From assembly GCA_002269645.1 (NCBI GenBank), contig NIVC01001978.1:62001-126000 (forward strand): a DNA stretch of 64,000 nucleotides, in the 5' to 3' direction. The position numbers and the translations under genes are program-made. Below are positions 5,909 to 64,000 of this stretch, piece by piece. Numbering within the stretch: the stretch's first letter is position 1; every line of letters starts with the position of its first letter. The notes beneath the pieces are model-generated. The model did no database searches. It had not been told where the DNA came from and worked only from the letters and a program-made list of their open reading frames with translations. Source of the stretch: Macrostomum lignano. Taxonomy: Eukaryota.

Positions 5909-6821
5909 TTTAGCGACTCGCAAAATGAAATGGCGCGAGAGAAAGTAAACTTTTATTTTTCACAATCGCATATAAATACTGCGCGACAGAGAGGCATGGG
6001 GAGGTGCGCATAGTCCGTGCCAGACCCTGCGGCTTAGCGCGCCGGCCGTCTGGGTGCACCCACCCCCCGGGCAGGGTGAGTCAGGCCGATTGAGTGCAGG
6101 TGCACTGCCCGCGCCTACAGCGGGCTGGTCTGGCCGCCACACAGCTCCCCCCAGCACCGAGCTATGCATCGAGAGTTGTCGGGCGACACCGGCGAGGCGG
6201 CTGGCGGCGGCTGGGGAGGGCAGCGGCGGGCTGGTCTGCTGTCGAAGGGCGGCCAGCTGAGGCCGCGGGACCGGCGGCAGGCGGCTGGCCCGCTGTTGTC
6301 GGGACAGCTCGAAGGTGCCGAGCAGTCGCTCCTTCAGCCTCTTGTACTTTTCTTCCCTCGGCGGATTCTCCAGCGCGTCGATGAGCCGCTCGGCGGTCTG
6401 CTGATCGAGCGCCGCGATGACGTGGCTGTACTTCGTGTCGTCATCGGAGATCTTCCGCAGAGCGAATTGAGCTTCGGCCTGAACAAACCAAATACGAGGT
6501 TGAGATGCCCAAAACGTGGGCAGTTTGAGTGCAACGGCTGACTCCGTAGTCATTCCTCAGCTACGGCTGGGGTTGTCGGGCTCACCAATTTAGCGACTCG
6601 CAAAATGAAATGGCGCGAGAGAAAGTAAACTTTTATTTTTCACAATCGCATATAAATACTGCGCGACAGAGAGGCATGGGGAGGTGCGCATAGTCCGTGC
6701 CAGACCCTGCGGCTTAGCGCGCCGGCCGTCTGGGTGCACCCACCCCCCGGGCAGGGTGAGTCAGGCCGATTGAGTGCAGGTGCACTGCCCGCGCCTACAG
6801 CGGGCTGGTCTGGCCGCCACA
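5909..6821 (-). mobile_element. Miniature (TRIM-like) non-autonomous LTR retrotransposon: two 233-bp LTRs, PBS, truncated gag, PPT, 4-bp TSD
   Basis: LTRs at 5909-6141 and 6589-6821 appear identical by eye. TSD ACAC at 5905-5908 and 6822-6825. PBS (minus) TGGTGAGCCCGAC resembles the complement of the tRNA-Trp 3' end. PPT GGGGGGAG lies beside the left LTR. Confidence 0.9.
6142..6553 (-). pseudogene. Truncated Gypsy-type gag N-terminal domain inside the miniature LTR element
   Basis: MTTESAVALKLPTFWASQPRIWFVQAEAQFALRKISDDDTKYSHVIAALD...KYKRLKERLL is the LPxFW...WFxQxEAQF gag motif; the ORF runs on into the PPT/LTR. Confidence 0.8.
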
Positions 6822-7261
6822 ACACCTTTCCAGACTTATTTCGACAAGCCAACATCCTATTCACCTCCGGCAGTACAATAATTTAGACAGTGTATTGTTT
6901 CTCAAACTCGATTGACTATAGCAAAATTCCAACTCAAATTAGACTTTTAATGCAACATTTAAATGGAAACTTAAATGGTGTTCTGAAATACCTAAGTTCT
7001 AAATTCTAAGGTAGAATAATATAATATTGAGATGTCTATAAATTGGGTATCTCGTTTTGCTAAAAAATGGGAAAAAAGGTAAACTGCCATATCATATAAA
7101 TAATCAGTCTTAAAAATTATTGAATAAATAATTAAGTATAACTCACGTGCAGCAAAACCAGACAAAAGAGAAATGTGCCGCCTCCACCACCGTTGATTGC
7201 GATTAAAATCGATTAAAATCAACTGACCACTCACAAAAATTACAGTCTCAACGATTAAACG

Positions 7262-33345: not shown

Positions 33346-33744
33346 TAACAATCATCTAAAATCCCAGTCAATATTACACAGCAAACATTTCTTGTTTTAA
33401 AGCTTCAATCGAATTTTTTAAACACAAGTTTATATCAAGCTGCTTCCACATCAAACTGGGTATCACTGCTTTTGTTATATTCAGATGCTCAATCTAGAAT
33501 CGGAACATGTAAATTCTGATATTCTAAATATCTGTGTTATTCTTGTAAATCAGATTTGTGCTATTTTTTCATATTAACATACGATTTCTACCGCTGCCAT
33601 TATATCGAAGAATGTTTTTACATGGTTGAAATTTTGTTTGCAAAATAAACGGTTTAACTACTTAAAGTGGAGAAAAGCTAGTTGCTTGGTTGAAAAAATC
33701 ATGTTCATTAACTTCTTCCTGATGGTAGAATTAATTCAAGAATA

Positions 33745-36700: not shown

Positions 36701-37285
36701 CATCACAATCTAGAATCTTCACAATCTAGAATCTTCACAATCTAGAACCTTCACAATCTAGAATCTTTACAATCTAGAACCTTCACAATCTAGAATCTTC
36801 ACAATCTAGATTCTTTACAATCTAGAATCTTCACAATCTAGAATCTTCACAATCTAGATTCTTTACAATCTAGAATCTTCACAATCTAGAATCTTCACAA
36901 TCTAGAATCTTCACAATCTAGAATCTTCACAATCTAGAATCTTCACAATCTAGAACCTTCACAATCTAGAATCTTCACAATCTAGAATCTTCACAATCTA
37001 GAATCTTCACAATCTAGAGCCTTCATAATCTAGAATCTTCACAATCTAGAATCTTCACAATCTAGAATCTTCACAATCTAGAATCTTCACAATCTAGAAC
37101 CTTCATAATCTAGAATCTTCACAATCTAGAATCTTTACAATCTAGAGCCTTCATAATCTAGAATCTTCACAGTCTAGAATCTTCACAATCTAGAACCTTC
37201 ACAATCTAGAACCTTCACAATCTAGAATCTTCACAATCTAGAACCTTCACAATCTAGAATCTTCATAATCTAGAATATTCACAGC
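33745..37285. repeat. 16-bp tandem satellite (TCTAGAATCTTCACAA), ~3.5 kb
   Basis: About 220 copies by length/period, most with a TCTAGA core. Confidence 0.96.
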
Positions 37286-40875: not shown

Positions 40876-40984
40876 GTGAGGCTGAGGGGGGGGGTACCGT
40901 GGCTCTGTTTTGTTACGAATGCTGTTATCATCTAACCTCTCCTAATTTTTGTTGAGTTTCCTATGTTGCACAGGTTCGAGCTGT

Positions 40985-42500
40985 ACATCTCTCTCTCCCA
41001 TTACCCTCCCTCTCCACTTCTCTCTCCTTTGTCTCCATCCCTACCCACTTCTCTCTCTTTTGTCTCCATCCCTCTCCACTTCTCTCTCCTTTGTCTCTCT
41101 CCTTTGTCTCTCTCCCTCTCCACTTCTCTCTCCTTTGTCTCTCTCCTTTGTCTCTCTCCCTCTCCACTTCTCTCTCTTTTGTCTCCATCCCTCTCCACTT
41201 CTCTCTCCTTTGTCTCTCTCCTTTGTCTCTCTCCCTCTCCACTTCTCTCTCCTTTGTCTCTCTCCTTTGTCTCTCTCCCTCTCCACTTCTCTCTCTTTTG
41301 TCTCCATCCCTCTCCACTTCTCTCTCCTTTGTCTCTCTCCTTTGTCTCTCTCCCTCTCCACTTCTCTCTCCTTTGTCTCTCTCCTTTGTCTCTCTCCCTC
41401 TCTCTCTCACTTCTCTCTTTGTCTCTCTCCCTCTCCACTTCTCTCTCCTTTGTCTCTCTCCTTTGTCTCTCTCCCTCTCCACTTCTCTCTCTTTTTTCTC
41501 CATCCCTCTCCACTTCTCTCTATTTTGTCTCCATCCCTCTCCACTTCTCTCTATTTTGTCTCCATCCCTCTCCACTTCTCTCTCTTTTTTCTCCATCCCT
41601 CTCCACTTCTCTCTCCTTTGTCTCCATCCCTCTCCACTTCTCTCTCCTTTGTCTCCATCCCTCTCCACTTCTCTCTCCTTTGTCTCTCTCCCTCTCCACT
41701 TCTCTCTCCTTTGTCTCTCTCCCTCTCCACTTCTATCTCCTTTGTCTCCATCCCTCTCCACTTCTCTCTCCTTTGTCTCCATCCCTCTCCACTTCTCTCT
41801 CCTTTGTCTCCATCCCTCTCCACTTCTCTCTCCTTTGTCTCCATCCCTCTCCACTTATATCTCCTTTGTCTCTCTCCCTCTCCACTTCTCTCTCCTTTGT
41901 CTCTCTCCCTCTCCACTTCTCTCTCCTTTGTCTCCATCCCTCCACTTCTCTCTCCTTTGTCTCCATCCCTCCACTTCTCTCTCCTTTGTCTCCATCCCTC
42001 CACTTCTCTCTCCTTTGTCTCCATCCCTCCACTTCTCTCTCCTTTGTCTCCATCCCTCTCCACTTCTCTCTCCTTTGTCTCCATCCCTCTCCACTTCTCT
42101 CTCCTTTGTCTCCATCCCTCTCCACTTCTCTCTCCTTTGTCTCCATCCCTCTCCACTTCTCTCTCCTTTGTCTCCATCCCTCTCCACTTCTCTCTCCTTT
42201 GTCTCTCTCCCTCTCCACTTCTCTCTCTTTTGTCTCCATCCCTCTCCACTTATATCTCCTTTGTCTCCATCCCTCTCCACTTCTCTCTCCTTTGTCTCCA
42301 TCCCTCTCCACTTCTCTCTCCTTTGTCTACAGCTCCTTCTTCACTTCTCTCTCTCCCTTCTCTCCATCATTCTCTACTTATCTCTCTCTTTTGTCTGTCT
42401 CTCTCCATTTCTCTCTCCTTTTTCTCCTTTACTCTCCACTTATATCTCTCCTTTGTCTGCCTCCTCAACTTCTCTGTCTCCTTTCCGTCCCTTCTCTCCC
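40985..42500. repeat. CT-rich tandem repeat (CCCTCTCCACTTCTCTCTCCTTTGTCTCCAT) in tetraspanin intron 1
   Basis: Direct periodicity of ~31 bp. Confidence 0.9.
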
Positions 42501-42543
42501 TATCTCCATCATACCCAAACCTTCAACCCCATCATCATCACAG

Positions 42544-42939
42544 GCCAGCTCGGTCGCTCTCCTCCTGCCTCTGCTACTGGCCCTGGCGGGCATATTCGGC
42601 TGGACTTCGCTGCGCACCGGCCGAGTCCAAGCGACTCTGCTACACCTGGGCGCCTTGCTGCTCCTTGCCGGGACCTCCCTGTTCCTCGGTGCCGCCTGTT
42701 TCGCCGGTCGCGACTCTGCTCTGCGAGTCGTTGAACGCAATTTTCAGCTTGTACGCGACTGTCGCACAGATTGGCTGGTGGACCGTCTGCAAACGGAATT
42801 GAACTGTAGCGGATGGAATTTCACCACGGCGCATCGGTCGGTGTGTCCGCAATCGCCTTCTGCTGGCGCCGCTGGAGTCCTTGGAGACAAGGATGGCAAT
42901 GGATCGGTTGTAACGCCTGCTGTGACTCAAAAGAACTTG
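42544..42939 (+). CDS. Tetraspanin-like protein, exon 2 (TM2, TM3, start of large extracellular loop)
   Basis: VALLLPLLLALAGIFG; LLHLGALLLLAGTSLFLGAAC; DRLQTELNCSG (cf. LQxxLxCCG); CACAG|GCC and TTG|GTGAGC. Confidence 0.7.
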
Positions 42940-43019
42940 GTGAGCTGCTTCTGAGTCTGCTTCTGAGTCTACTTCTGAGTGTTTTTATTGCTTTTTTCTT
43001 CAAGTTGTTTTCATCAACT

Positions 43020-45320
43020 TTGACTCCTCTTCTGGCCTCCTCCTGATTCCCCCTGACTCTTGTGGCCTCCTCGTGATTCCCCCTGACTCTTGTGGCCTCC
43101 TCGTGATTCCCCCTGACTCTTGTGGCCTCCTCGTGATTCACCCTGACTCTTGTGGCCTCCTTGTGATTCCCCCTGACTCTTGTGGCCTCCTCGTGATTCC
43201 CCCTGACTCTTGTGGCCTCCTCCTGATTCCCCCTGACTCTTGTGGCCTCCTCTTGATTCCCCCTGACTCTTGTGGCCTCCTCGTGATTCCCCCTGACTCT
43301 TGTGGCCTCCTCCTGATTCCCCTTGACTCTTGTGGCCTCCTCCTGATTCCCCCTGACTCTTGTGGCCTCCTCCTGATTCCCCCTGACTCTTGTGGCCTTC
43401 TTTCTGATTCCCCTTGACTCTTGTGGCCTCCTCCTGATTCCCCCTGACTCTTGTGGCCTCCTCCTGATTCCCCCTGACTCTTGTGGCCTCCTCCTGATTC
43501 CCCTTGACTCTTGTGGCCTCCTCATGACTGTCCCTGACTCTTGTGGCCTCCTCGTGATTCCCCCTGACCCTTGTGGCCTCCTCGTGATTCCCCGACTCTT
43601 CTGGCCTTCTCGTGATTCCCCCTGACTCTTGTGGTCTCCTCCTGATTCCCCCTGACTCTTGTGGCCTCCTCGTGATTCCCCCTGACTCTTGTGGCCTCCT
43701 CGTGATTCCCCCTGACCCTTGTGGCCTCCTCGTGATTCCCCGACTCTTCTGGCCTTCTCGTGATTCCCCCTGACTCTTGTGGCCTCCTCCTGATTCCCCC
43801 TGACTCTTGTGGCCTCCTCGTGATTCCCCGACTCTTGTGGCCTCCTCGTGATTCCCCCTGACTCTTGTGGCCTCCTCCTGATTCCCCCTGACTCTTGTGG
43901 CCTCCTTGTGATTCCCCCTGACTCTTGTGGCCTCCTCGTGATTCCCCCTGACTCTTCTGGCCTCCTCCTGATTCCCCTTGACTCTTGTGGCCTCCTCCTG
44001 ATTTCCCCTGACTCTTGTGGCCTCCTCCTGATTCTTCCTGACTCTTGTGGCCTCCTCCTGATTCCCCCTGACTCTTGTGGCCTCCTCCTGATTCCCCCTG
44101 ACTCTTGTGGCCTCCTCCTGATTCCCCTTGACTCTTGTGGCCTCCTCCTGATTCCCCCGACTCTTGTGGCCTCCTCATGACTGTCCCTGACTCTTGTGGC
44201 CTCCTCGTGATTCCCCCTGACCCTTGTGGCCTCCTCGTGATTCCCCGACTCTTCTGGCCTTCTCGTGATTCCCCCTGACTCTTGTGGTCTCCTCCTGATT
44301 CCCCCTGACTCTTGTGGCCTCCTCGTGATTCCCCTGACTCTTGTGGCCTCCTCGTGATTCCCCCTGACCCTTGTGGCCTCCTCGTGATTCCCCGACTCTT
44401 CTGGCCTTCTCGTGATTCCCCCTGACTCTTGTGGCCTCCTCCTGATTCCCCCTGACTCTTGTGGCCTCCTCGTGATTCCCCGACTCTTGTGGCCTCCTCG
44501 TGATTCCCCCTGACTCTTGTGGCCTCCTCCTGATTCCCCCTGACTCTTGTGGCCTCCTCGTGATTCCCCCTGACTCTTCTGGCCTCCTCCTGATTCCCCT
44601 TGACTCTTGTGGCCTCCTCCTGATTTCCCCTGACTCTTGTGGCCTCCTCCTGATTCTTCCTGACTCTTGTGGCCTCCTCCTGATTCCCCCTGACTCTTGT
44701 GGCCTCCTCCTGATTCCCCCTGACTCTTGTGGCCTCCTCCTGATTCCCCTTGACTCTTGTGGCCTCCTCCTGATTCCCCCGACTCTTGTGGCCTCCTCCT
44801 GATTCCCCCTGACTCTTGTGGCCTCCTCCTGATTCCCCCTGACTCTTGTGGCCTCCTCCTGATTCCCCTTGACTCTTGTGGCCTCCTCCTGATTCCCCGA
44901 CTCTTGTGGCCTCCTCCTGATTCCCCCTGACTCTTGTGGCCTCCTCCTGATTCCCCCTGACTCTTTTGGCCTCCTCATGACTGTCCCTGACTCTTGTGGC
45001 CTCCTCGTGATTCCCCCTGACCCTTGTGGCCTCCTCGTGATTCCCCGACTCTTCTGGCCTTCTCGTGATTCCCCCTGACTCTTGTGGCCTCCTCCTGATT
45101 CCCCCTGACTCTTGTGGCCTCCTCGTGATTCCCCCTGACTCTTGTGGCCTCCTCCTGATTCTTCCGGACTCTTCTGGCCTCCTCCTGTTTCCCCCTGACT
45201 CTTGTGGCCTCCTGATTCTTCCGGAATCTTCTTGCCTCTCCTAATTCCCCCTGACTCTTCTGGCCTCCTCCTAATTCCCCCTGACTCTTGTGACCTCCTC
45301 CTGATTCTTCCCGATTCTTC
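43020..45320. repeat. 30-bp tandem repeat (GACTCTTGTGGCCTCCTCCTGATTCCCCCT) in tetraspanin intron 2
   Basis: 10-aa periodic ORFs; higher-order blocks start at ~43525, 44178 and 44978. Confidence 0.94.
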
Positions 45321-45459
45321 TGACTTCGGATATTAAATAATCTTGAAAAACACATTTTCACGCTTGATGAACCGCAGAAAAATGCTAATCCCTAAGTCTG
45401 ATTCTTCAATGAATTTCATAATAAATGCCTTCACCCTTACGGTTACTAAACGGATTCCC

Positions 45460-50308: not shown

Positions 50309-51064
50309 AGCGTTCTGTTTCGTATTTTTTTAGTCGAGACAAGTTCTACAGCACTAAGTCATTATCGCATTGGAGAAGGCTAACACAGTTTTCTTGTCTT
50401 TCACCGCAGCTCTGAATTGCGTGTGTCCACCGCTTTGCTTCTATTTATTTAATTTAGCAGGGAGCAGCAATTATCAGTTATATATAGTCCTCGCTCCCTC
50501 TCTCTCTCCCATCTGAGATTGTGTTTCCTGTAGGCTGTAAACGAAGCACTCTTTCACTGTATAGTGGCAACCGTTTCCTTTGAATATAGTCGTCCTACAC
50601 TCACTCTACAGCCCTGTCTCGCTCTCTGTGCCCCAGCATCCATGCAGTTACGCTCTGGTATATAAACCCCTCTTGACTGTCCGCTCTGCCGGCCTGTCTC
50701 TCTTGGCCCTTCTCTGTTCTCGTCGCTTCATTTACCTCTAACCTTACCCAAAGCCCATATTCACGGGCCAGACCAAGAACGCATTATTTCGACTGGCGTT
50801 CGTTGTTGTTTTTAATTGCCAAGACCAAAAGCCCCAGAGGCCGCGCCAGGAGAGCAGAGCACGTATCCCTCACTCCACTCGCTAGAGCCAATGGCGACAA
50901 GTTGAAAAGAGCAAGTCAAGCACAAATAAAAACAATATGCGTATACTTTACTTTGAAGTAGTATATCTTGCGATTCAGTTGTAATTTAGGATATAAAGCT
51001 TGCTCGCGTACCCCGGGTTCCACTGCTCTTTCGTTCCAACTGTTTTTTATCCCCTTCATCTCCA

Positions 51065-51371
51065 ACCCTTCCTCAGTCCTTCATTCGCTCTGATCTCCGA
51101 CCTTAATTCCTCCTTCATTCACTCTGATCTCCGCCTCTAATTCTTCCCTCATTCACTCTGATCTCCGCCTCTAATTCTTCCCTCATTCACTCTGATCTCC
51201 GCCTCTAATTCTTCCCTCATTCACTCTGATCTCCGACCTTAATTCCTCCTTCATTCGCTCTGATCTCCGACCTTAATTCCTCTCTCATTCACTCTGATCT
51301 CCGCCTCTAATTCTTCCCTCATTCACTCCGATCTCCGCCCCTTTCTCCTTCATTCACTCTGATCTCCGCCC
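51065..51371. repeat. 34-bp tandem repeat (CATTCACTCTGATCTCCGCCTCTAATTCTTCCCT) abutting the Maverick terminus
   Basis: About 9 copies. Confidence 0.9.
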
Positions 51372-51900
51372 AGTAGTAGGAAAGTGGTACCCTCTACCGC
51401 CATCGCACGGGATTGGCCGGGGCACCCGGCCAATGAGGGGAGAGGGCCCCCAAAGACGCCTACCCCGACCCCAGACCCACCACCGCCACGCACCCACCCC
51501 CGACCCCAGACCCAACACCGCCACGCACCACCCCCGACCCAAACCGGGCCCCCAAAGATGCCCACCCCGACCCCAAACCGGGCCCGCCAAAGACGCCCAC
51601 CCCGACTCCAAACCAACCACCGCCGCACCTACCTCCGACCCCAAACCGGGCCCCCCAAAGATGCCCACCCTGACCTCAAACCGGGCCCCCTCCTGTCCTG
51701 CACCCCATCCCATACCAAGGCCCTTTACTGTCCTGCACCCCATCCCATACCAAGGCCCCCTCCTATCCTGCGCCTTGCTCCATCCCATATAGCAAGGTCC
51801 TTCTATCCTGTACTCTAACCAAAACCAATTCCCCCCTCCTAATTCCTAAACCCAGTCTTATTACCTGTCTCACTTACCGCCTTTAAAGCTAGCCAAGGCA
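51372..51900. repeat. Candidate left terminal inverted repeat of the Maverick (GC-rich, internal CCCCGACCCCAAACC repeats)
   Basis: Starts with AGTAGT, the typical Polinton end, exactly where the 34-bp array stops. Partner TIR is not in the window, so the inner boundary is approximate. Confidence 0.55.
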
Positions 51901-52043: not shown

Positions 52044-52270
52044 AGTTCCTGCGAAAGGGCTGCTGTGTGGGGGTTGGATTCGGGGTTCGGATTGGTTATT
52101 GCTATGGAGCGCGAGCTGGTTTCTAAATGGCTGAGTGGTCCCCGGAAGGGCTCTTGATTTGCCAATAGTTCCTGCCAGAGGGCTGTTGTGTGGGGTTGGA
52201 TTCGGGGTTCGGATTGGTTATTGCTATGGAGCAAGAGCTGGTGTTACTTACCAACTCCCGTCGTATATAA
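52044..52270 (+). promoter_or_regulatory. Duplicated ~77-bp element with CCAAT (ATTGG) boxes followed by TATATAA
   Basis: Repeats at 52044-52120 and 52167-52242; TATATAA at 52264-52270, upstream of the plus-strand ORF. Confidence 0.5.
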
Positions 52271-52319
52271 TCTCGCGCACAGCCGGAAGGAAAGCTCACA
52301 GTTTTTGACAGTGAACAAA

Positions 52320-53020: not shown

Positions 53021-53443
53021 CTTTTTTTAATATAGTTTTGAACCATAATACTGATCATGCACTGTTGTATATATTGCTTTGTCAATACTGGCCATAATAT
53101 TGCCCCATCATGCTTTGATTCCTGGCGATAATTCTGTTTTTGTAAATTACGCGACGGGCCTTAATACTGCCCTTCCATTCTTCGTAAACTTTTTTGTGCT
53201 AAAACGAGCTTTAAACATGTAATTTTATGCTTTGCAATCCATGGACCTGCCAATAAAATAAACAAAACAAAAAACATTTCATTTTCGTAAGCATTGTTGC
53301 ACAAACACTATAGTCGCATTCGCGTTTATTTTTTCTTATCTTTTGTACACAAAAAATACAGAAGTAAAGTTACAGCAAAAATATTATTATTATTACTCAG
53401 TGCATAGGCAGATCTCACTACTACTGTTATGCCGTAGAGGAGC

Positions 53444-54040
53444 TCAATCAGAGTCCAGCAAAGTAGGTTCGGATGCTTGGTCTGCATGCAAAATGCGGGA
53501 GAGGGCATCAGCTGCAGTCTGAGCCTCAACGACGCTGCGAGCGCCAGCTATTATACAACGATACGAATGAAACAAAATCAACTTTACAGAGGCATTAAAC
53601 TTGAGCACAAGTCCGTTAAACATTTCCGGCTCGTAGGTGGCCCGATGCGGCCATTTAGACTTGACTTCCCCCAACCGGAGTAGATGCCGACCCGCGAAAA
53701 AGGCCGTCACAGAGGTAATAGTCTTGATGCGAATCTGGGGCAGACTGGTCAATCGCAAGAAGTCCTGGTCAATCGCAATATTCTCCGTCTCTGCGAGAGC
53801 TTCCTCCATGCTTTTGGCTCCATAGACAGACACTTGTCCGGTCGGATACACCAGCGCGGTTACTCGATGCTGCCCGCTCTTCATCACCACTGCCAGTGTT
53901 CGAGGATGAACCAGGCGATGGCGGATTGTGTGATACTGAGGCAGATGAAGAGTCAGGAAATTCGATAGTTGAGGCAGACCCACCCGGGTCGCCAGGTCGG
54001 CTCCTGTCACGATGTTTGTCACGCAAATTGTTGCGACCAT
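53444..54040 (-). CDS. TBP: Element-encoded divergent TATA-binding protein (TBP-fold) homologue, 198 aa
   Basis: Two TBP repeats: VTNIVTGADL...HPRTLAVVM..RVTALVYPTGQVSVYGAKSMEEA and YEPEMFNGLVLK..VKLILFHSYRCIIAGARS..EA..A. Intronless; minus-strand AATAAA at ~53325. Confidence 0.85.
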   Translation of the reverse strand: MVATICVTNIVTGADLATRVGLPQLSNFLTLHLPQYHTIRHRLVHPRTLAVVMKSGQHRVTALVYPTGQVSVYGAKSMEEALAETENIAIDQDFLRLTSLPQIRIKTITSVTAFFAGRHLLRLGEVKSKWPHRATYEPEMFNGLVLKFNASVKLILFHSYRCIIAGARSVVEAQTAADALSRILHADQASEPTLLDSD

Positions 54041-54042
54041 CT

Positions 54043-54533
54043 TTAGACAATCGAGAGAAACGCCAGTGCCTGCTGCAGATCGCTACTTTTATAGACCCGT
54101 AGCCGCGAGGCCGCAGCCAATCAGCGTACAGCGCCACCTTGGCCAGGGCGCAGGGTAGCACGTACTTCGAGGCACTCGGAAAGGCCAGGTGTGCGAGGTC
54201 GTAGACAGGCTGTAGCAGCAGACGCGACAGGAACTGGCACTTGACATCCCCCTTGCTGAATATCGGGCCTTGCAAGTGGGAGATATCGCTCCAGAGACAA
54301 GAGTAGGGTCGGAACCCACTCCTGTCCCAGTCTAGACCGTGCCGCTTATTGGTGAGCCAGTAGCAGGTTCGTCGCTGTCCTCGATCAAAGAGCTCAAAGC
54401 TGTGCGGCGGCTGGTAGCAATAGTAATGAGCCGTCGTTTGACCGCATGCAAACTCAACCCATGCAATTTCCTTAATCACAAAGTCCTCTGTTTTGTAGAG
54501 GTGCGGAAATCCTTCAAAATCAATGACAATCAT
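54043..54533 (-). CDS. DEDD/DnaQ-like exonuclease-fold accessory protein
   Basis: IDFEGF...FVIKEIAW...HYYCYQPP...TCYWLT...HGLDWD..G...KCQFL...CA; ATG at 54533. Restoring one A at 54087-54090 gives a natural stop at 54045-54043 instead of the 53769 end in the ORF track. Confidence 0.55.
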
Positions 54534-55126
54534 CTTGGCCACTTGATCCACTTGCCGTATCCTTTCTGAGACTGAGTCTTCTTATAGCCTTGCAGTCGAG
54601 GTTTTTTAGGACTGGACTTTTCTTCCCGAGGCTTTTCCAGCAATTTTGTAGTGTTCAGACCAACTGCAGACAGAGGCACGTGGTTTTCTTGAAGACACGT
54701 AACAAACTCATTAATCCCATTCGGTGGCTGAAGGTACTTAGAGTACGTATCTTTAACTATGAAATGCAGCAGGTCCACGATATTTGAGTTGTACAACGGT
54801 TTACCATTGACAGAAACTTCATACGTATCATCTATGCTAATCGACTTGCACTTTACGGTTATGAAGCTAATCAATGCCTGCAGACGATGATGCCATTTCT
54901 GATTCACCGTCAGATATAAAACCTCCTTCCACTGCGGTTCTTTGTGAATTACTGGAGGCTGTTCTTGGGTCGCACTTGCCTGCAGCTGCTGCACGCAACG
55001 CTCGTCCCTAATCTTGCGCAACTGTTTTTCCGCCTCTAGCTCGGGTTCACAGACTGTCTCCATGCCCCTCTGATTCACAAGTGCCTCATACTGCAACCGG
55101 GGTACCAGTATCATTTCCTTGTACAT
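54530..55126 (-). CDS. Conserved Maverick hypothetical protein
   Basis: MILVP..YE.L...; NSNIVDLL; PNGINEF...L.ENHVPLSAVG; terminal WIKW. These motifs are typical of Polinton unknown ORFs. Confidence 0.65.
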   Translation of the reverse strand: MYKEMILVPRLQYEALVNQRGMETVCEPELEAEKQLRKIRDERCVQQLQASATQEQPPVIHKEPQWKEVLYLTVNQKWHHRLQALISFITVKCKSISIDDTYEVSVNGKPLYNSNIVDLLHFIVKDTYSKYLQPPNGINEFVTCLQENHVPLSAVGLNTTKLLEKPREEKSSPKKPRLQGYKKTQSQKGYGKWIKWPR

Positions 55127-55418
55127 GTCTTTTTATACAGGTGAGAATCAGAGGAAGACAACGAAGGATATGCGGGTGTGAGAGATTGCGCCGAGCCTCT
55201 TTCACACTTTTGCTTTGTGCAACAAGCCGGAGAGTATTTCGATATCGCCTGAGTCTCCGCTTCAAGCTATCTTCACAACAAACTTTTCCTGCTAGTAGAT
55301 TTATAATACACTCAACCAAAAAGCAAATGGTGCTTTTATTTGCATAGGTAAGTATGCAGCGACGCAAGGATATAGTGCCCTCACAAAAGACAGTTATTAG
55401 TGCAATGTGTTTATCCAT
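55086..55418 (-). CDS. Conserved small basic Maverick protein
   Basis: CFLVECIINLLAGKV...KRRLRRYRNTLRLVA...K.ARR.L, the ECxxNxLxGxV family seen beside Polinton ATPases. Confidence 0.65.
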   Translation of the reverse strand: MDKHIALITVFCEGTISLRRCILTYANKSTICFLVECIINLLAGKVCCEDSLKRRLRRYRNTLRLVAQSKSVKEARRNLSHPHILRCLPLILTCIKRHVQGNDTGTPVAV

Positions 55419-55448
55419 GTTTAACTCAGTGCAGATACTGAGCCATTC

Positions 55449-56104
55449 TTATAGATAAACTCGCTGCGGGGCCTCATCGGGGAGAAAATTGGCTCTCAGG
55501 CGCAGTTCATGGGGCGAAGCGGGGTGAAAATCAAGCAGCAGATAGCGCTGATCTCCATCTCGCACCAATCGATCCATCAGTTCTACTAGCAGAGTGCGCC
55601 GTTTGGGAAAGCATTGCTGACTTAAAGCTTGGACCGCAGAGGCGTCTCTGGGGTTGAACAACACAATGTAGGTGCAATTTATGCTAATTGTGCGCCACTC
55701 TCTGCCTTTGAAAAATAGATTTTGCGTGATGAGAATGACAAAGCAGGGCTTGTGGTGGGCCTCACGGGTGAACAGATGTCGTAGCTCTCGACTTGCAGCT
55801 GCTTCATCCAGTAAATCGTCAATCACAATCAGGTCATGGGGCTGCAGATCCAAATTCGATAATCCTTCACATACTTGCACTCCTAGCCGCCGCAGAGTCG
55901 CGTGGAGTTCCGGCTGCGGGCATCCGTGATACCAAATCATCCGCTTGGGAGGTTGGTCGAACAGAAGCAGTCGTTGGGACAGCAACCGCAAACAGAATGT
56001 TGATTTTCCCGCTCGAGAAGGGCCGAAACCATCATGCAGCCTCCCATCCGCAGTCTGGAATCAAACACCTTGCAACTGATTTTTGAGTCTGAGTATGATT
56101 GCAT
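55449..56104 (-). CDS. FtsK/A32-like DNA packaging ATPase (1-bp frameshift at 56023-56024)
   Basis: VFDSRL..CMMVS(G)PSRAGKST Walker A after restoring one G; LIVIDDL Walker B; LFTREAHH..VILITQNLF; RTISINC.YIVLFNPRD. Confidence 0.9.
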
Positions 56105-56534
56105 CGTTTTGAGCCACAGCTGCCGGGTGCAAAACCTTGATGAACAAGGCATTATATGACATTCTCTTATGTAGTCGATGGATCAAGTAAAAAATGCAAT
56201 ACCAGCCGCATAGAGTTGACGAACTGGGCTGAACAGGGACCGTATTCCATTGCAGCACCATCCGCGTCGGTTTAGTTTTCTTTAACCAGCTCTTCATATT
56301 TTTACTCAAGCCTCCCAAAGAGTTGAAAATTTCACAATGCACTTTACTTGTTACTACTCCAGCAATCCAGTGACCGCACTCATCATTCCATGGCTCATAC
56401 AAAATGAAACAGCAGGGTCGGCAGGTTGAATCGAAAAATGGTGTCACTGTTCCAACTGTAAAAATTCCGCAATAGGCATCCCACACAGCTGTGGGGCAGC
56501 GAGAAATGAACGCTTCCAACTCTTCGGAATTCAT
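56061..56534 (-). CDS. Adenain-like cysteine (maturation) protease
   Basis: GHWIA (His), EIFNSLG (FDSxG-like), VQPSSSTLCGWYCIFYL (Gln/Cys). Confidence 0.9.
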   Translation of the reverse strand: MNSEELEAFISRCPTAVWDAYCGIFTVGTVTPFFDSTCRPCCFILYEPWNDECGHWIAGVVTSKVHCEIFNSLGGLSKNMKSWLKKTKPTRMVLQWNTVPVQPSSSTLCGWYCIFYLIHRLHKRMSYNALFIKVLHPAAVAQNDAIILRLKNQLQGV

Positions 56535-57801
56535 GCTCTGCGATAATCCAGCAGCACATCCCTCTCTTTAGTGATTTCCATGCATGAATCATACACGCAC
56601 AAGCAGATGAGTGTGACTGGCTGTGCGAGAGCGTTGGAAAAGCGAATATCCAGTCGTAGTTGACCCTGCCTATGACCAAACCAGCTGCCTACTTCATCGC
56701 CACTTGGACTAAGGTCAAACGCAAGCAGATAGGCACTATCTCGATATTCATCAAAGCTCATGCAATAGTTTCCACCGAGACTGCGGGCAAACTGCAAAAA
56801 TTCGGATGAGTGCTGCTGCTGTGGTTCTATGGGCTGCCCAGTAATTGGCTCTCCATTGACAAACAGGCTTAAACTATTCAATCCAAATGCTTGGAACCAA
56901 AACGGGTTGTGGTGCAGAGATCCATTGAAAGCTGTCTGGCTGACCATTCCAAGGAGCACAAATTTTGGCAGCTGACCATGCGTGATTGAATCGAGACTCT
57001 TGTTTCTTGTCCCAACAGAAAATGTGAATGTCTGAAGCTCTCTTCTATCAAAGTGGTAGAGAGCATTACGCTGTGAGAGCCCCTGTTCATGTGCGAGAGC
57101 CACTGTTGGGTTTACTCGGAGACGCCTCAAAAGCAGAATAGCATTGTCGACTTCAATACGATATTGAACTCCATTATTGGGTACCATCAACGAAAAGCGC
57201 TGCAATGCCGGGTCAATTTGACCTGCAGGCTGATTTGGTTTAGCAGATACTGCCGGATTGAGAAAATGTCTGAAAACAACGGGCCGGCATATTGCACAAC
57301 AGCAGAAGCTTCATGCAATCTCGCACGATTTGTGAATCCATGATTTTGCTCCCCAATGGTGTCACTCTCTCCAGCGGTGTCTGGATAATAACCTGCGGCC
57401 GCCAGTTCTTGAAGCTGGTTGGCATTGCTGCTGGTCAGCACTTGAAGCATTGCTCGATATGGGTAGAGCTGGTCCCCACCACTCACAACCCGCTGGTTGA
57501 GTTTTACAGTGACATCACGAAACAGGCTGGCAAGCGGGAGATTCGATAGTCCGACATGGGCATCATCTTCATTAGTCAGCTCTGCATTGTTTATCACACG
57601 AGTTATCCGGCAAGTGACTTGCAGCACTGTGGCGTGCAGATCGGTGTAGTCCTCAGAGGAGGCATGGCAGTCGAATTCAATCGGTGCATCAGGAGTCGTG
57701 AGACTGCCGATGGGATGAAAGTCCATGAAGTGAGACCTATCCACTCCAATTTCATGCGTCATTGGCTCAAACAGGTTGAGCCGTGGATTTGTCCGATACA
57801 T
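56531..57801 (-). CDS. Major capsid protein (double jelly-roll type); 1-bp frameshift at 57193-57196
   Basis: LNLFEPMT..HPIGSLT..APIEF..DYTDL..T.L.V..RI; LASLFRDVTV.LN; YPYRA; GQLP..VLLGMV..AFNGS...NPF.F; L.AFDLS; G.LRL.IRF...L. Confidence 0.88.
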
Positions 57802-58070
57802 TATGAGAGTGAATCGAGCACTCGGTTGACTGTTTTTAACGGTATCTTGCGCTTTTTTGTGGGCACTGGCTTGCTCTTCTTTGGTTTGATTTTTGGCGTC
57901 TTCTTTTGTTTTCTTTTTTTCTGCGATGGAGGTGGTATGCGGGAAAGGAGAACTGCATTTTCATGAGTCTCAGGGGGCAGTCGAGATAGCAGCGATGTGG
58001 GATATCCGTGTCCATGAGGAAGTTTGAAGCAACTTCCTCGATAAAACTCGGTCACTTGTCGAATGTCCAT
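57801..58070 (-). CDS. Small Lys-rich protein, candidate virion core/DNA-condensing protein
   Basis: FYRG...GHG..S.L..L N-terminus; QKKRKQKKTPKIKPKKSKPVPTKKRK basic tract. Confidence 0.55.
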   Translation of the reverse strand: MDIRQVTEFYRGSCFKLPHGHGYPTSLLSRLPPETHENAVLLSRIPPPSQKKRKQKKTPKIKPKKSKPVPTKKRKIPLKTVNRVLDSLS

Positions 58071-58834
58071 GACTCACGCAGCTCAAAAGTCAAGACTGTG
58101 GGCCCAAAGAGTAATCGAATGGATTCGATGCAGTTGATCGGTCGTAGCCGTATTTGCATGTGTGTTAAGCGGTGGTTTGCTGCTATTGGGAAGAATAGCT
58201 TATTCTTATAGATGAGTTCCGACCGGTGACCCTGCAAAAGACCACCAATATTCAAAGTCTGCAGTGCTGGAGTAAACTGATTTCCAATACAGCGCGGGCT
58301 AATCTGATCGCACTCAACAAGCAGCAAATCTGTATTCCAGGCCGGGTTCATGCCAGGTCGTTCAAAGCAACCTGCCTGCTCGCTATAGGTTGTCTGCGCA
58401 GCACCAAAAATTTTCCCCAGCTGGCTGTTTTCTGGAAAGATAAATCTCCCACAGATCCCAGCCATTTGATAGTATACATGATGGCTAACTGAATCAAGGG
58501 TAAATTTAATTAGATGCACATTTATAGGTGTTTCGCCAATTCCAGACTCATCAAAATCTTTCACAATCAGTAGGGTATTTACTGCATCAATCAGCTCATT
58601 CAAGTCATTGTAGCGCCCTGCTGGAATTTCAGCACATTGCATTGAACCCTCAAGCTGATAATATAGCGACAATGGATGAGGGATGGTGTAGATGCAGTTG
58701 ATAAAACTGATTCCAAGCAGAGCCAACTCATAATCCAAAGCAGAATCCAGCAGCACAGGATGCAGCAGCTCAGCAGTAAAGTTGGCCGGGTCATCATCGG
58801 GGCCGGACATTACCTGAAATCTTTGCCTTTTCAT
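58052..58834 (-). CDS. Minor capsid (penton-like) protein
   Basis: ANFTAELLHPVLL..DYELALLGISF; IPAGRYN.L.ELI..VN; LLVECDQI; position between integrase and MCP. Confidence 0.75.
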   Translation of the reverse strand: MKRQRFQVMSGPDDDPANFTAELLHPVLLDSALDYELALLGISFINCIYTIPHPLSLYYQLEGSMQCAEIPAGRYNDLNELIDAVNTLLIVKDFDESGIGETPINVHLIKFTLDSVSHHVYYQMAGICGRFIFPENSQLGKIFGAAQTTYSEQAGCFERPGMNPAWNTDLLLVECDQISPRCIGNQFTPALQTLNIGGLLQGHRSELIYKNKLFFPIAANHRLTHMQIRLRPINCIESIRLLFGPTVLTFELRESWTFDK

Positions 58835-59805
58835 ATTTTTCTTAAGTCTTTTTCGTCAATCCAACTGGGTTTTTCTGAATCGCGCCACTGAACCAAATAC
58901 CGAATCTTTCCACTCTTCAGCTTCTTAATGTTGAGAACCTTGTCGATGATCCACAGCTTCTTGTTTCCAGTCACTTGCTGCATTTCCGGCTCGTAAAACT
59001 TGCCTTCCAACTCTTCTCCTCGGGCATCGATCAGAGTGTACATGTATGGATAATGCTTGGGGTGGAGGGACTTGACTTCAAATACTTCCTCACTCCATCC
59101 CCTTGTGTATCCCTTGGTGAATGGGTTGGTCGGATTGCGAAGAGAGATTCGCACCATCATTCCTGCCTTGAACTTTGGTCTGGAGACCTTTTCACGAGTC
59201 TCAGGAAGCTTCCCATCGTAGAGCCGGTGCCAAATTTCCATCTCGTTTGACTTGTCGACATCAACTGGTCGGCTTTGAATACTCCGATGAATACTATGGT
59301 TGTAGGCCTTCACTAGGGGCTGAAGCACATCGGTCCAGGTTAATGTTGACTTGTGACGGAAGTACCGCCACATTCGGGATTTCAGTGTGAGGTTCCATCT
59401 CTCAATGACTGCGCATTTCTGGTCACTACTTGATGTGAATGCATGAATTTTGTGGTTTACGCAGAGGGCTCGGAACTGGGTGTTGCAAAACTCTTTTCCG
59501 CGGTCGGTCCGAACTGCTCGTGGGCATCCAGGGTGAGCTCGATTTAGGATCGCTTCGAATCCGGCTGCAACCTCCTCGGCTGTCTTGCGGCGCACCGGCT
59601 GAGCCCAGGCAAACTTGCTGAGCACATCGATGCAGCATAAAATGTATCGCATGCCGCCATTGTACTTGGCGAACGGCAGCATTTCAACCAGGTCCAGTTC
59701 CCACTGGTCATCCATGCCCCGCACCACAATCGGTGCTCGACGAAAGTTTTTGCGTTTATCTCTATGCAGTGTGTAGACATCTTGGTCTTGTAGCCACGTT
59801 TTTAC
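58831..59805 (-). CDS. Maverick rve integrase with C-terminal chromodomain, exon 2
   Basis: VKTWLQDQDVYTLH..RKNF; WELDLVEM; IDVLSKFAW; TDRGKEF; AVIERWNLTLKSRM; YNHSIH..I; KFKAG..VRIS; KGY..GWSEEVF; G.FYE.E.Q; IDKVL..YLVQW..SWI. Confidence 0.93.
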   Translation of the reverse strand, partial: VKTWLQDQDVYTLHRDKRKNFRRAPIVVRGMDDQWELDLVEMLPFAKYNGGMRYILCCIDVLSKFAWAQPVRRKTAEEVAAGFEAILNRAHPGCPRAVRTDRGKEFCNTQFRALCVNHKIHAFTSSSDQKCAVIERWNLTLKSRMWRYFRHKSTLTWTDVLQPLVKAYNHSIHRSIQSRPVDVDKSNEMEIWHRLYDGKLPETREKVSRPKFKAGMMVRISLRNPTNPFTKGYTRGWSEEVFEVKSLHPKHYPYMYTLIDARGEELEGKFYEPEMQQVTGNKKLWIIDKVLNIKKLKSGKIRYLVQWRDSEKPSWIDEKDLRKI

Positions 59806-59900
59806 CTTTAGTGTGAAAACTGGAAATTGCTAGCAACTAAAAACCTAAGCTGGAATTTTCTAGAAAATCATTGGTTTAGGAGTATATCGTATATACATAC

Positions 59901-60038
59901 CTGCCCTACACTAAACTTGGGCCCGTGCTGTTTGTGCAACTCTCGATTTAATGCCTGATAGCCGCCATAGCTGCCCGGCCTACTGCAGTCGAAATAAATA
60001 CCTGGCAGAAGGTTGGAAATTGCCTTTTTCTTTTTCAT
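59901..60038 (-). CDS. Maverick integrase exon 1
   Basis: MKKKKAISNLLPGIYFDCSRPGSYGGYQAL...GQ then GTATGT donor; a 95-bp phase-0 intron (59806-59900) joins it in frame to exon 2. Confidence 0.85.
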
Positions 60039-60149
60039 TTTACCAAATTTCTAGTACCTATCATTTTCTTATGCCAAACACCCGGCTTGAAAAAAAAAAA
60101 CTACCCACCCCCACCCATTTCTGCGGATTTAGCGTTTCTAGCCTCTGTT

Positions 60150-60465
60150 GTGCACGAAAAAGCATGCATGTTTGCACAAAATACATACATTTCAATGGGA
60201 ATTTTTACCCGAATGTGTGCACAAAAAACCTCGACACTTTGCATACTTTTTAACACTGTGCACGAAAACTTGCATACTTGTGCACAAAATACATACATTT
60301 CAATGAGGATTTTTACTCGGACCTGTGCATGAAAATTGACGCATGTTGTCAAAAAATTCACGCCGTATTGAATACTTTTAATCACTGGACGAAAACTTGC
60401 CCACTTGTGCATAAAACACATGTATTTCAATGGGGATTTTTAACCTTTTTAAGTGCATGAAATTT
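60150..60465. repeat. Three imperfect ~110-125-bp repeats with GTGCAC palindromes in the pPolB-integrase spacer
   Basis: TGTGCAC-AAAA...ACATTTCAATG.GGATTTTTA recurs at ~60150, 60257 and 60385. Confidence 0.7.
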
Positions 60466-60870
60466 TACATTGTTTTACACGAATTAATTTTACACAAAAA
60501 CTAGTATCTCGATTTGAATTTAGTTTGTTTTATACATTATTTTATCGACAGTTTTAAACCCTTTTTACTCGTACTTTATGAAAATAAATGAATAAAAAAT
60601 TTTCTTTTTACCAACCTCAACTCAAACTAACATGTATACATTTCGTGTTTATTAAAAAAAGTGCCATAATTCCTCGTTAGTAATTAAAAATCAGCAAATG
60701 AAATGTACAAAAATGCAACGCACACATTGACAGTATTATAGGCCAAAACATTATGATTATATTAAAAATGGTATCAATGGTATTTTTATTATCTAGACAG
60801 CAGAATAAAACAAAACATCATCGTTATTATCAATAAACAAGGTAGGTACGAGTTTCGTATTCAGAAAAAT

Positions 60871-63800
60871 CTAGTCAAACGGGCAGGGTCGCTTTCGCTT
60901 CTCTGCCTCTAGACGCCAGTGGCCGTAGGGTAGGCTCTGATTTGCCGCGAGCCATGCCCTCTTGTCCTCCCAAAACGAGAGTGCGCGTTTCAAGGTGGCA
61001 GTGGTAAACAACTCATGATGCTCACTGGCAATACGACGCGTCAGCCAGGACTTTTCTTCCATTTTCATCAAAGTTTCGCAGTAGTCGGCGTGGCAGATTT
61101 CATTTTGCACTACAGATCGCTGCACACCCTTAGCACGACGCTTGTCCTTGGAGGAGTTTACTGCAGCGAAGGAATAGAGCTTGGGTCGCAACAGGATCCA
61201 CTCATAAAAGTTCGCTGTACCATCGCTCTCATCCTTTACACAGCCTAACCTTGCTTTGCGTTCGCAAGTATACAAGCAATGGTCCTTGGGATAATTAGAG
61301 GTGTCCAGCAGCTCCATTTCGCACAGTTTAGGCAGAAACCATCGCTCGCCATCAGCATTCTTTAAGTGGAGGAAGAAAGAGTCAGTGTCACCGCCGAGCA
61401 GACTGAGGCTCGCACACGGTAACTGATTGACCAGCGGAAGCAGCTTATCATACCACAAGCTGTACATAATGAGTTTGCTGTTATCAAGGACACACTGTCC
61501 GATGTACACCGGTTTGTTGAGCTCGACTGTTGTCTTGCGCATGTGGACGAGAACAAGATTCTCATTAAATATCTCTTGATCTTCAAAGTTAGGTTTAGCT
61601 GCGAGCTTCTCCAACTTCTCTGCTGAGTTGACCAGGCGGTAGTCGACGCGTTTGCGCACGTTCTCCATGGTCTTTCCAAACAGAGAGTTGTTCAGCAGCT
61701 TATTATAATCCTTTTCAAACTCATTTTTGGCTTGTGCACGCCGCTCACTATTACGTCGAATGTAAGGCTCGAGTACTGCTGCTTGCTGAAAGCGAACAAT
61801 GCAGTGGACAGTACGCAGCCTAAGACCTAGACGGAGATAAAACTGTAGGATTCTGGCGTGTACAACATAGCTGGTTTTATCAAAGCATGTCAACATCAAC
61901 TTGTCGCCTCCTGAATTATATCCTCCGCAAGAGAGCCTCTGTCTAGAAAGTAGTTCCCAGAGCTGCTGCTGATGCGGCGGCATCCATTCCCATTGAGGCT
62001 GCGCCTTCTCTGGAGCAAGGGGCAAGTCTGATGTCTTGTCGTGCAACTCTGGGGGTAATGGAGATCAACCTTTAGCAGGTATCCAACATCGCCCTCTGGG
62101 TCAAACTCATCCCTGATCCATCTCTCAACCTCATTGTTTGGTGGTACAGTGTCAAGCATTGGAACCCACACCATGGCAGTTTGGTGGACAAGGCGTGTCC
62201 GTAGAGGTTGTTGGCGTCGATGGGGATAAGATAGGTTTGAGGTTGATGCGAATCATACAGCTCACCGAGTCCGGGATGGTTGGCTTTGGCTCTGTGTGTG
62301 TTGACAAATGTCATACCACCACGAGTACCCTCTTCAAATAAGCTGTACAACTCTGGACATTGCAGCAATTCAAGCTCCAATTTACAGTACTTAAGCGCTG
62401 CTTCGAAAGACATTCCCGGCGTCGTTATAAAATGCACTGGGTCTAGCCCATCCGAAGTGAGGCTCATTCGACGAAACGCCTCGAACACATCGGCGAGCTG
62501 GCGAATGTCCATTTCTAGGTATGCAAGCATGTAGTCGCGCAGTGTCTTACATCCAAACTCTCTCCAGGCACGCTGGGCAGTTGCATAGTCCTGATCATTG
62601 CAAGGCTCATTGTTCAAGTCGTTAGCAAAAGCTTCTTGGGATGGGAGCTGTTGCTCATCTAAATTCGAATCACTAGTTACATAGGAATAGGGGAACACCC
62701 CCTTTCGCAGTAGGACTTCGGTGGAGGCGAGTGGATATCGCTGCTGCATCTCCATCGTGTAGTGACAGTCTACCGGGGTTAGATTGCGCACTAATTGAGC
62801 AAGACTCGACGCCATGAATTGGAAAGAGTCGAGAAAACGCAGACGCATGAATTTTGGCACCAAGCGATCTTTAGATGAGTCATAGACCGACTCAATAGGT
62901 ATACGGGCCTCTAGAGTCATGTAACGCTCCTTTGTTTGTGCAATGACACTTAGTTCCCAATGTTTCATACGACCGATCACCGTGCTGCACAACAAGTGTG
63001 AATCATAACCTCGGAAATTGTGAAAAAAGATTGGAAGAAAGTCGCGCTTGAGAACAGCTGACTCATTACACGACGGGCATGCAGCACCCAAAAACTTGCC
63101 ATTGAGATGATCATGATGAAAGTGGCGATCGTCATCAAGAACTTTCTCGCACAAGCAGCAATGAGTGGCAGTCTGGAACTGCTCTTCCTCCTGGACAGAG
63201 CGATTGGCAGGGTAATGACTATGTCGCGCATTCCACTTGTATGCTGCAATGGCGACAGCCTCCAGTACCTGTAGGAAGTGCATCATGCACTCATCCGACT
63301 TTGAAAACAGCTGCATAGGACGTTCGGAGAGTGGAGGCCCAGCTACGTCACTTCTTTGGACAATAAGGAATCCGGCAGCGGCTGGAAGGTGGTGTGCAGT
63401 CTTAAAGGTAACACAGCCATCTAGCTCATCGTCTATGGGGGACATCATTGCTTCAAAATCTGCATAGATGACATGAGGTGGGGAGAGTGTTTTGTGCCAT
63501 GCCTTGAATCGTAGTGTTTTATCCTTTGGCATCACCTCCTCCATGCTATCCTTACGGCCAATGCACCGCCGTCTATGAACGGATAGAGACTCAACCGTCC
63601 GGAACTTGCCTAGACAGCGATCGCACCAACGATATCTATGCGCGTCATGACTGTTCATTAGACGATCTAGGTTAGCAATAGCACACCAATGGTTGCCGGC
63701 ATCAGTGGTAACCAATAGAAGCAGGATCAATCGATGAGGTCGCCATTCGTGAATGAGATCTGCTGGGGCTGGGCGTAAGCACTGGGCATGGCCGTTAGTC

Positions 63801-64000
63801 CAGTTGAAGGCCGAGATAGCCAATCCTGGATTGTTCTTTTCCACTCGACCCAGGTCATTCACGTTGGCAGGGAAAGGAACGTTGTCCCAACGGAGTTCGT
63901 CTTCCCACTCCCGGAAAGTGAAGCGTCGCAAAGGCTTCTCACTGCTGACACGGTCTGCGTGCAATGCAGACAGAACGGCATATTTCAGACAGTCGTTCCC
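60871..64000 (-). CDS. polB: Protein-primed family B DNA polymerase (5' end outside window; 1-bp frameshifts at ~62157 and 62051-62055)
   Basis: YADFE (Exo I), HNFRGYDSH (Exo II), endonuclease-VII-like C..C...HDH..G..LG.AC..CN, DANNLYG, KLLNNSLFGK, GDTDS, LGCVKDE, LRPKLYS, KRRAKGV. Confidence 0.95.

Follow-up and report, generated by a model that had tools for sequence, protein, structure and literature searches.

A TAAG-core variant TATA box and a divergent TATA-binding protein in Maverick elements of Macrostomum lignano: a candidate late-transcription switch

The window analysed here (the whole stretch of 64,000 nt from Macrostomum lignano contig NIVC01001978.1, positions 62,001 to 126,000) carries a Maverick element with a protein-primed DNA polymerase B (Pfam DNA_pol_B_2, E = 2e-7), an rve integrase (E = 3e-13) and a TATA-binding protein (TBP) gene of its own (E = 1e-18). 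The Maverick/Polinton set of a double-jelly-roll major capsid protein, a packaging ATPase and a protease is also present; the ATPase and protease matches are weak and below the Pfam cut-offs, and gene order supports both labels. The window copy is broken in the polymerase, capsid and ATPase genes. The far end of the element lies beyond the window, and subterminal tandem repeats are seen inside it at 51043-51828. The subject of this report is a short TATA-like box with the core TAAG that recurs upstream of the integrase and structural genes, and its probable pairing with the element TBP.

Positions are those of the window and genes lie on the minus strand unless stated otherwise. The polymerase gene (60871..64000) is broken near 62000-62070 and starts beyond the window. 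The rve integrase, with a chromo-like tail (58831..60038), consists of two exons (59901-60038 and 58831-59805) separated by a 95 nt GT-AG intron (59806-59900). The exons are colinear with the intronless integrase of family B, a further Maverick family of the same genome, and the intron ends are kept in the covering copies of the window element's own family, A (donor 14/14, acceptor 16/16). In contigs from four runs that we guessed to be RNA no spliced integrase joint was found, and one contig crosses the intron unspliced; this was counted neither way. Colinearity and conserved ends suggest a spliceosomal-type intron, which would point to nuclear RNA polymerase II.

Next lie a probable minor capsid gene (58052..58834; no Pfam match), which we take to be such from its position, and a small basic open reading frame (ORF; 57801..58070), presumably core-like from its position and composition. 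The major capsid gene (56531..57801) is split by a frameshift near 57190 in the window copy; a capsid sequence search of the PDB gave no match, and the family B homologue matches double-jelly-roll clusters of the Atlas at 0.97-0.98. The cysteine protease (56061..56534) has weak Peptidase_C48/C5 matches below cut-off. The packaging ATPase (55449..56104, the start codon being inferred) is frameshifted near its 5' part in the window copy, and its relatives give weak Pox_A32 matches below cut-off. U1 (55086..55418, an ORF call) and U2 (54530..55126) have no assigned function. The EXO ORF (53769..54533) has a nuclease-like N-terminal part and no Pfam match; in the Atlas it matches unnamed arthropod clusters at 0.95-0.96 and a Maelstrom-domain cluster at 0.86, the latter a lead only. 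The TBP gene (53444..54040) encodes 198 residues in two repeats and was recognized by Pfam and by its predicted fold, with an altered DNA-reading face. In families A and B alike, the end of EXO runs into the TBP gene in another reading frame. Host DNA to the left of the element holds a long 16-bp tandem array and simple-repeat blocks (33585-37000 and 40900-45400).

Upstream of these genes, the first-pass annotation had reported a recurring YATAAGAA motif at five minus-strand sites (CTATAAGAA at 54579-54587, 55446-55454 and 58203-58211, CATAAGAA at 60066-60073 and CTATAAAAG at 54086-54094), with motif-to-ATG distances of 35, 35, 53, 53 and 140 nt. All five sites and distances were confirmed. 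The list was incomplete, lacking two sites before the minor capsid gene (58839-58846 and 58922-58929) and CATAAGAG at 56164-56171 before the ATPase gene, and the site before the TBP gene is not a variant but TATAAAAG, a canonical TATA box. The conserved form is not YATAAGAA either; what stays constant is a TAAG core set in TATA register.

Conservation was analysed in 20 fetched family A copies, each count referring to the copies that cover the site; a TBP search of the same genome gave 151 matches. The variant box before the integrase (CATAAGAA, 60066..60073) is intergenic, 35 nt from the ATG, with the same 8-mer in 14/14 copies. For the minor capsid gene, ATTAAGAA (58922..58929) lies within the integrase gene, 95 nt before the ATG (11/11 copies), and CTTAAGAA (58839..58846), within the 3' end of the integrase gene, precedes the first in-frame ATG by 12 nt and the second by 36 nt. 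The latter is kept in 10/11 copies and at the same site in family B; it overlaps conserved L-R-K codons and is therefore weak evidence alone. The commonest box form in the window, TATAAGAA, is found at 58203..58210 (140 nt before the core-like ORF, 11/11), at 55446..55453 (35 nt before U1, 18/18, its TAA being the ATPase stop codon) and at 54579..54586 (inside U2 and 53 nt before the EXO ORF, 20/20). CATAAGAG (56164..56171) lies within the protease gene, 67 nt before the likely ATPase start (15/15). The major capsid site at about -107 (57901..57908) is degenerate in the window and intact in 5/5 other copies inspected. A TAAGA box thus precedes the family A genes for the integrase, both capsid proteins, the core protein, the ATPase, U1 and EXO. 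Canonical boxes precede the TBP gene (TATAAAAG, 54086..54093, 53 nt before the ATG in 20/20 copies), the polymerase gene (TATATAAT, minus strand, at -96 from the start) and an ORF on the plus strand at the other end of the element (TATATAAT, 52264..52271, plus strand). TATAAAAG is a candidate host-read early promoter of the TBP gene.

The suggestion that each gene has a promoter hidden in the 3' end of its neighbour fits the placement of most boxes, in the terminal part of the preceding gene. It does not extend to the protease gene, with no family motif within 110 nt in 9/9 tabulated elements, or to U2, which is mostly without one (none at 30-110 nt in the window). The protease start overlaps the capsid stop (56531-56534) and U2 overlaps U1 (55086-55126), which suggests coupled translation or trans-splicing for these boxless genes. 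Three imperfect 57-nt repeats occupy 60151-60442 in the polymerase-integrase gap, directly upstream of the integrase box; an enhancer or an origin is possible.

CTATAAGAA was seen three times against 0.028 expected in 10.7 kb and YATAAGAA four times against 0.33, and 0/500 shuffles matched either count, so that the 9-mer is indeed rare by chance, as had been claimed. Its choice was post hoc, however, and in 76% of 500 coding-block shuffles at least one 9-mer is present in three copies; the window alone is therefore no proof, and a chance estimate drawn from it was rejected as such. All seven TAAGAA copies in 53301-61000 are on the gene strand. Over the family A copies, 1/56 motif columns are variable compared with 775/6837 other columns (p = 0.018).

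Two further TBP-encoding Maverick families, B and E, were found in the same genome. Family B (20 loci) has the gene order of family A; identity to family A is about 35% for the TBP and about 55% for the integrase. Unbiased counting of words in the window together with five family B elements, the latter related to each other, placed TAAGAA first among hexamers and CTTAAGAA first among 8-mers; in a search by element, TAAGAA was second in the window. Family B has one box each before the integrase, minor capsid, core, major capsid, ATPase, U1, EXO and TBP genes, and the places compare with those of family A as -149 and -140 (core), -104 to -110 and -107 (capsid) and -46 to -58 and -53 (EXO). No free motif column is variable (0/20, compared with 1343/2222 third positions; p = 1e-8, 16 copies). 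The non-coding integrase box is present in 9/12 loci with a start found (13 tried), where the flanks are unlike and unalignable. Family B also encodes a PC4 coactivator (L049:8188-8949, minus strand; Pfam E = 4e-6) with a canonical TATA box upstream; no PC4 domain was seen in the window.

Family E has a different gene order and a capsid about 30% identical. A short ORF in it is a TBP that was missed by Pfam (profile to PDB TBPs, E = 4e-9; Foldseek with the predicted fold, E = 5e-8, TM only 0.4). In three family E elements TATAAG ranks first among hexamers, mostly as TATAAGYA; its strand bias in four elements is 7:0, 10:0, 6:1 and 8:1. The TBP frames of family E run upstream of the first ATG, and a true start further up or an intron are both conceivable. 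Deoxynucleoside kinase and dUTPase genes stand beside TBP and polymerase (L091:1112-1546, 6574-7260; L107-L112). For small families with a protein-primed polymerase at C173, C558 and C1263, the stretches fetched matched neither capsid nor TBP; these families were excluded. In small capsid-less elements with this polymerase (L094:1300-2750, L097:1460-2870), a repeat-like stretch preceding the polymerase gene contains 7-10 copies of TAAGAA on a single strand.

Beyond this genome, an integrase profile was used to fetch four viral loci from IMG/VR and the best 80 of 255 metagenome loci; scans of IMG/VR with the TBP alignment and with two capsid alignments found no relative. A TBP gene is present in 5/84 fetched loci, which represent three further lineages (L203/L217, L220/L208 and L168). 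L203 and its relative L217 have the box TTTAAGC; L220 and L208 have YGTAAGAA, mostly at -34 to -37 in gene-proximal cases. Five of the six TBP lineages thus have a family-specific TAAG-core box: YWTAAGA (window), CTTAAGAA, TATAAGYA, TTTAAGC and YGTAAGAA. The expectation that the motif would be enriched and kept in position in other copies was borne out, also in distant families.

Box type was scored in 32 elements of at least 6 kb from 17 integrase lineages, using fixed patterns at -33 to -62 and the best member per lineage. Non-canonical TAAG is enriched (p < 0.01) in 5/6 TBP lineages and in 1/11 lineages in which no TBP was found on partial contigs (Fisher p = 0.005). Canonical TATAWA is enriched in 0/6 TBP lineages and in 4/11 TBP-less lineages, a fifth being borderline (Fisher p = 0.10). 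In the integrase tree the TBP elements fall on four deep branches with an unresolved backbone, and the element TBPs form no clear single clade.

The position of the signal was analysed with the fixed 4-mer TAAG upstream of 61 hand-listed genes from six lineages. TAAG occurs 31 times in 1830 positions at 31-60 nt compared with 34 times in 10980 positions at 111-290 nt (odds 5.5, p = 1e-10); the counts per 10-nt bin are 3, 3 and 3, then 10, 8 and 13 at 31-60 nt, and 0 to 5 thereafter. No clear excess was found at 6-30 nt (p = 0.10; 61 genes). What was found is an oriented 8-mer at a fixed upstream distance, as in a TATA-type core promoter, and the motif is very probably a real promoter element.

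That it reflects instead coding and termination constraints in compact gene arrays (a TAA-G stop context, L-R-K and Y-K-K codons), together with chance, was considered in view of the frequency of thrice-repeated 9-mers and of the 59 family-pattern sites scored within the upstream range, which include five sites of the TBP-less L201: 24 were scored as intergenic, 24 as coding and 11 as stop, the window U1 site being a twelfth stop. About 23 sites remain intergenic, however, and the coding sites fall in both non-stop frames. The peak is still 4.1-fold after eight stop-coincident matches are dropped, the family B integrase site is kept amid unalignable non-coding DNA, and equally compact TBP-less elements have no TAAG peak. 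This explanation is already largely refuted and is the least probable of those considered.

The first-pass annotation had also noted the likeness of the motif to baculovirus late promoters. Under that explanation TAAG would be a late initiator used by the RNA polymerase of a nudivirus-like or baculovirus-like helper virus, with transcription starting inside the motif. The invariant core is indeed the late start motif of Autographa californica multiple nucleopolyhedrovirus (available text of PMC9786725), and most sites fit (A/G/T)TAAG. The spacing disfavours it, with the peak at 31-60 nt and no clear excess nearer the gene, as do out-of-frame ATGs tolerated directly behind the motif (e.g. at 60066 and 55446): across the sites, which are not independent, these amount to 9/1180 at +9 to +28 and 2/1348 beyond +33 (p = 0.03). 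A TATA box from which transcription starts near +30 accounts for the ATG pattern and the peak better than does a start within TAAG; no initiator consensus was found at +25 to +35 across the 59 sites. Box positions 1, 2, 7 and 8 differ from family to family, the integrase gene apparently contains a spliceosomal-type intron, and the association with TBP would be left unexplained. On these grounds a helper polymerase is improbable. A LEF-8 search of the same genome gave no match, but its control was silent too.

The structure model of the window TBP has a pLDDT of 81.5 and matches TBP structures in Foldseek with E = 2e-13 and TM 0.70, so the two-repeat saddle fold is kept in the prediction. For comparison, 21 element-type TBPs, including five for which no surrounding sequence had been fetched, were aligned in yeast numbering with N69 as the anchor. 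With it, A100, P191, I194, V203 and L205 coincide with the residues that PMC1636458 names. In the window TBP, DNA-contact residues are replaced (F99P, F116Y, V122S, T124Y, N159T, P191N and T215A), while F190 and F207 are retained; the canonical contact set of four Phe, two Asn, V122, T124 and T215 is not preserved, and the protein is a divergent TBP rather than a canonical one. V122 is replaced in 21/21 element TBPs (by S, T, Q or R) and F99 by P in 19/21, while F190, F207 and the acidic stirrup are kept in 20/20. The acidic stirrup of TBP binds TFIIB.

According to the available text of PMC1636458, the N-terminal TBP repeat reads the 3' half of the box. This repeat is the more altered half of the element TBPs, and G at position 6 is the sole departure common to all variant boxes. 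V122 would face box position 6, as the two-fold symmetry of TBP suggests; a literature search joining V122 and TATAAG gave no match. The sharpest apparent match of TBP and box is in L220/L208, whose TBPs carry I194N, V203T and L205C and whose motif has G at position 2. The yeast mutant TBPm3 (I194F, V203T, L205V) reads G at this position in the same source; L220/L208 share V203T with it and alter the other two residues, with N at 194, C at 205 and many differences at other positions. P191 as a determinant of box position 1 was tried and rejected: it fits families A, B and E and fails for L220.

The main rival is that the motif is a real but weak TATA variant read by host TBP, with the element TBP acting as a decoy, a repressor, a TAF or a Mot1/NC2 sink, or being a mere co-traveller. 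Several points favour it or otherwise weigh against a dedicated pairing. Wild-type TBP accommodates G at position 6 (available text of PMC1636458), was crystallised on G(-26), T(-30) and C(-25) variants (titles of PDB entries 1qn5, 1qna and 1qn3) and tolerates single changes at positions 2 and 7. A host-type TBP that tolerates each such single change may therefore read TATAAGAA. The loss of F99 and N159 could weaken DNA binding by the element TBPs. In one host histone H3 group (3/17 upstream regions) TTTAAG occupies a TATA-like position, L168 has a TBP with only a weak motif (3/10 genes, p = 0.07), L146 has a TAAG excess with no TBP found, and the TBP gene of family B itself has a variant box. 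No TAAG word tops the unbiased search in L168 or L208. The family A free motif columns (1/30 variable) do not differ significantly from third positions (288/2032; p = 0.11), the family patterns and distance bins were picked after the data had been viewed, and TBP absence was judged on partial contigs. Since the lineages are related and the integrase backbone is unresolved, 5/6 does not stand for six independent events.

Host reading of a weak box nevertheless leaves several observations unaccounted for. TBP-less lineages use TATAWA at the same distance (clear in 4/11, the fifth borderline) and not TAAG; CTTAAGAA and CGTAAGAA are three positions off the canonical box; and the G2 motif accompanies changes at TBPm3 residues. 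Among 17 distinct host H3 upstream regions, seven have TATAAA or TATATA and none has TATAAG. We consider this rival unlikely, if by some way the most serious. As to the histone genes themselves, a host H3 variant (ARKSMGA; L138, L140 and L141) has CCAAT and TTTAAGGG in place of a canonical TATA box. On three contigs (L133, L134 and L139; G000 C2786, C3085 and C4430) H3 genes are found at distances of up to about 3-6 kb from protein-primed polymerase matches, possibly in elements that carry or target histone genes.

The element TBP might also read the boxes and recruit a machine other than TFIIB and RNA polymerase II alone, such as RNA polymerase III factors or a complex with EXO, U1 or U2. EXO adjoins the TBP gene in families A and B and in L203, L168 and L184, family B encodes PC4, and the herpesviral TBP acts in a six-protein complex (available text of PMC7498053). 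Against this, EXO is also present in TBP-less lineages and the acidic stirrup is retained; T runs in the genes and the intron would speak against RNA polymerase III. We regard such a machine as very improbable.

We favour, with a probability of roughly two in three (0.68), a two-class system in which canonical boxes would serve early genes and the variant box would be read by the element TBP for the structural and integration genes, with host RNA polymerase II. The sequence comparisons lead us to infer that the boxes act as promoters, where transcription starts, that the element TBP binds them, that TFIIB and RNA polymerase II are used and that early genes precede late ones, as follows. Host TBP would first transcribe the canonical-TATA genes, in family A those for the polymerase and TBP. 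The element TBP would then bind the TAAG-core boxes, mostly sited in the tail of the upstream gene, and recruit host TFIIB and RNA polymerase II. Short-leader mRNAs would start about 30 nt downstream of the box for the integrase, capsids, core protein and ATPase, and boxless genes (the protease, often U2) would ride on the upstream transcript. With less confidence, we lean towards the view that several deep Maverick lineages have such a one-protein late switch, in which a natural altered-specificity TBP and its own box change together.

The closest known parallel is in beta- and gamma-herpesviruses, whose TATT late promoters are read by a viral TBP (ORF24, BcRF1 or UL87; available text of PMC7498053 and PMC6541308). 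Both have a virus-encoded TBP and a modified TATA in very small structural-gene promoters, with canonical TATA elsewhere. The Maverick TBP differs in being a stand-alone, Pfam-recognisable protein of about 190 residues with no known partner complex, and the system is known here from sequence alone. Of the marks of the herpesviral preinitiation complex, the TATT core is replaced by TAAG and the RNA polymerase II-binding N-terminal domain is missing; the five partners were not searched for. By analogy, the Maverick system would work like the herpesviral one without being a member of it. Baculovirus late promoters also place TAAG before structural genes (available text of PMC9786725), but there TAAG is the start used by a viral RNA polymerase, whereas the Maverick spacing fits a TATA box and the examined elements encode a TBP.

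From the portions of the sources available, the motifs that virophages and Polinton-like viruses share with giant viruses likewise recur upstream in small genomes of Polinton-like type. Such motifs depend on the helper virus. Family C of the same genome (L082-L083, L085-L086) resembles this type, and the TBP families do not. It is an AT-rich Polinton in which no TBP was found, with an Adeno_PX-like match below cut-off and with TATAAA or TTAAAAA directly before many ATGs. This placement recalls poxvirus and giant-virus late promoters, and family C may depend on a helper virus.

Mavericks, Polintons and adintoviruses share the protein-primed polymerase, rve integrase, ATPase, protease and capsids (available text of PMC8502044 and 10.1101/697771). 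The figure legends of these two sources name a TBP-like gene for related MELD viruses; in their main texts, as available, the word 'promoter' is absent and no motif or TBP function is described. A look-up of the words TBP and TATA in the available text of PMC8097293, PMC10748475 and 10.64898/2026.06.19.733378 gave no occurrence. The motif and its pairing with TBP were undescribed in the Maverick literature searched, most subscription papers and all supplements being outside its scope.

A private TBP with a private box would give a concrete answer to how animal Mavericks express the genes for capsid and packaging, and to whether a helper virus is required. In practical terms, the motif aids the calling of true starts and gene classes in TBP-bearing Mavericks, and the natural TBP-box pairs are possible orthogonal transcription tools. 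TBP-TATA recognition is among the most conserved of eukaryotic contacts, and matched natural TBPs, one of them echoing TBPm3, would form a rare natural series of orthogonal TBP-TATA pairs. If the proposed system is true, Mavericks would have an autonomous virus-like expression cascade, with late transcription by host RNA polymerase II that is convergent with that of beta- and gamma-herpesviruses and apparently needs one small protein. Viral late transcription would then have a third route, besides viral RNA polymerases and the herpesvirus complex.

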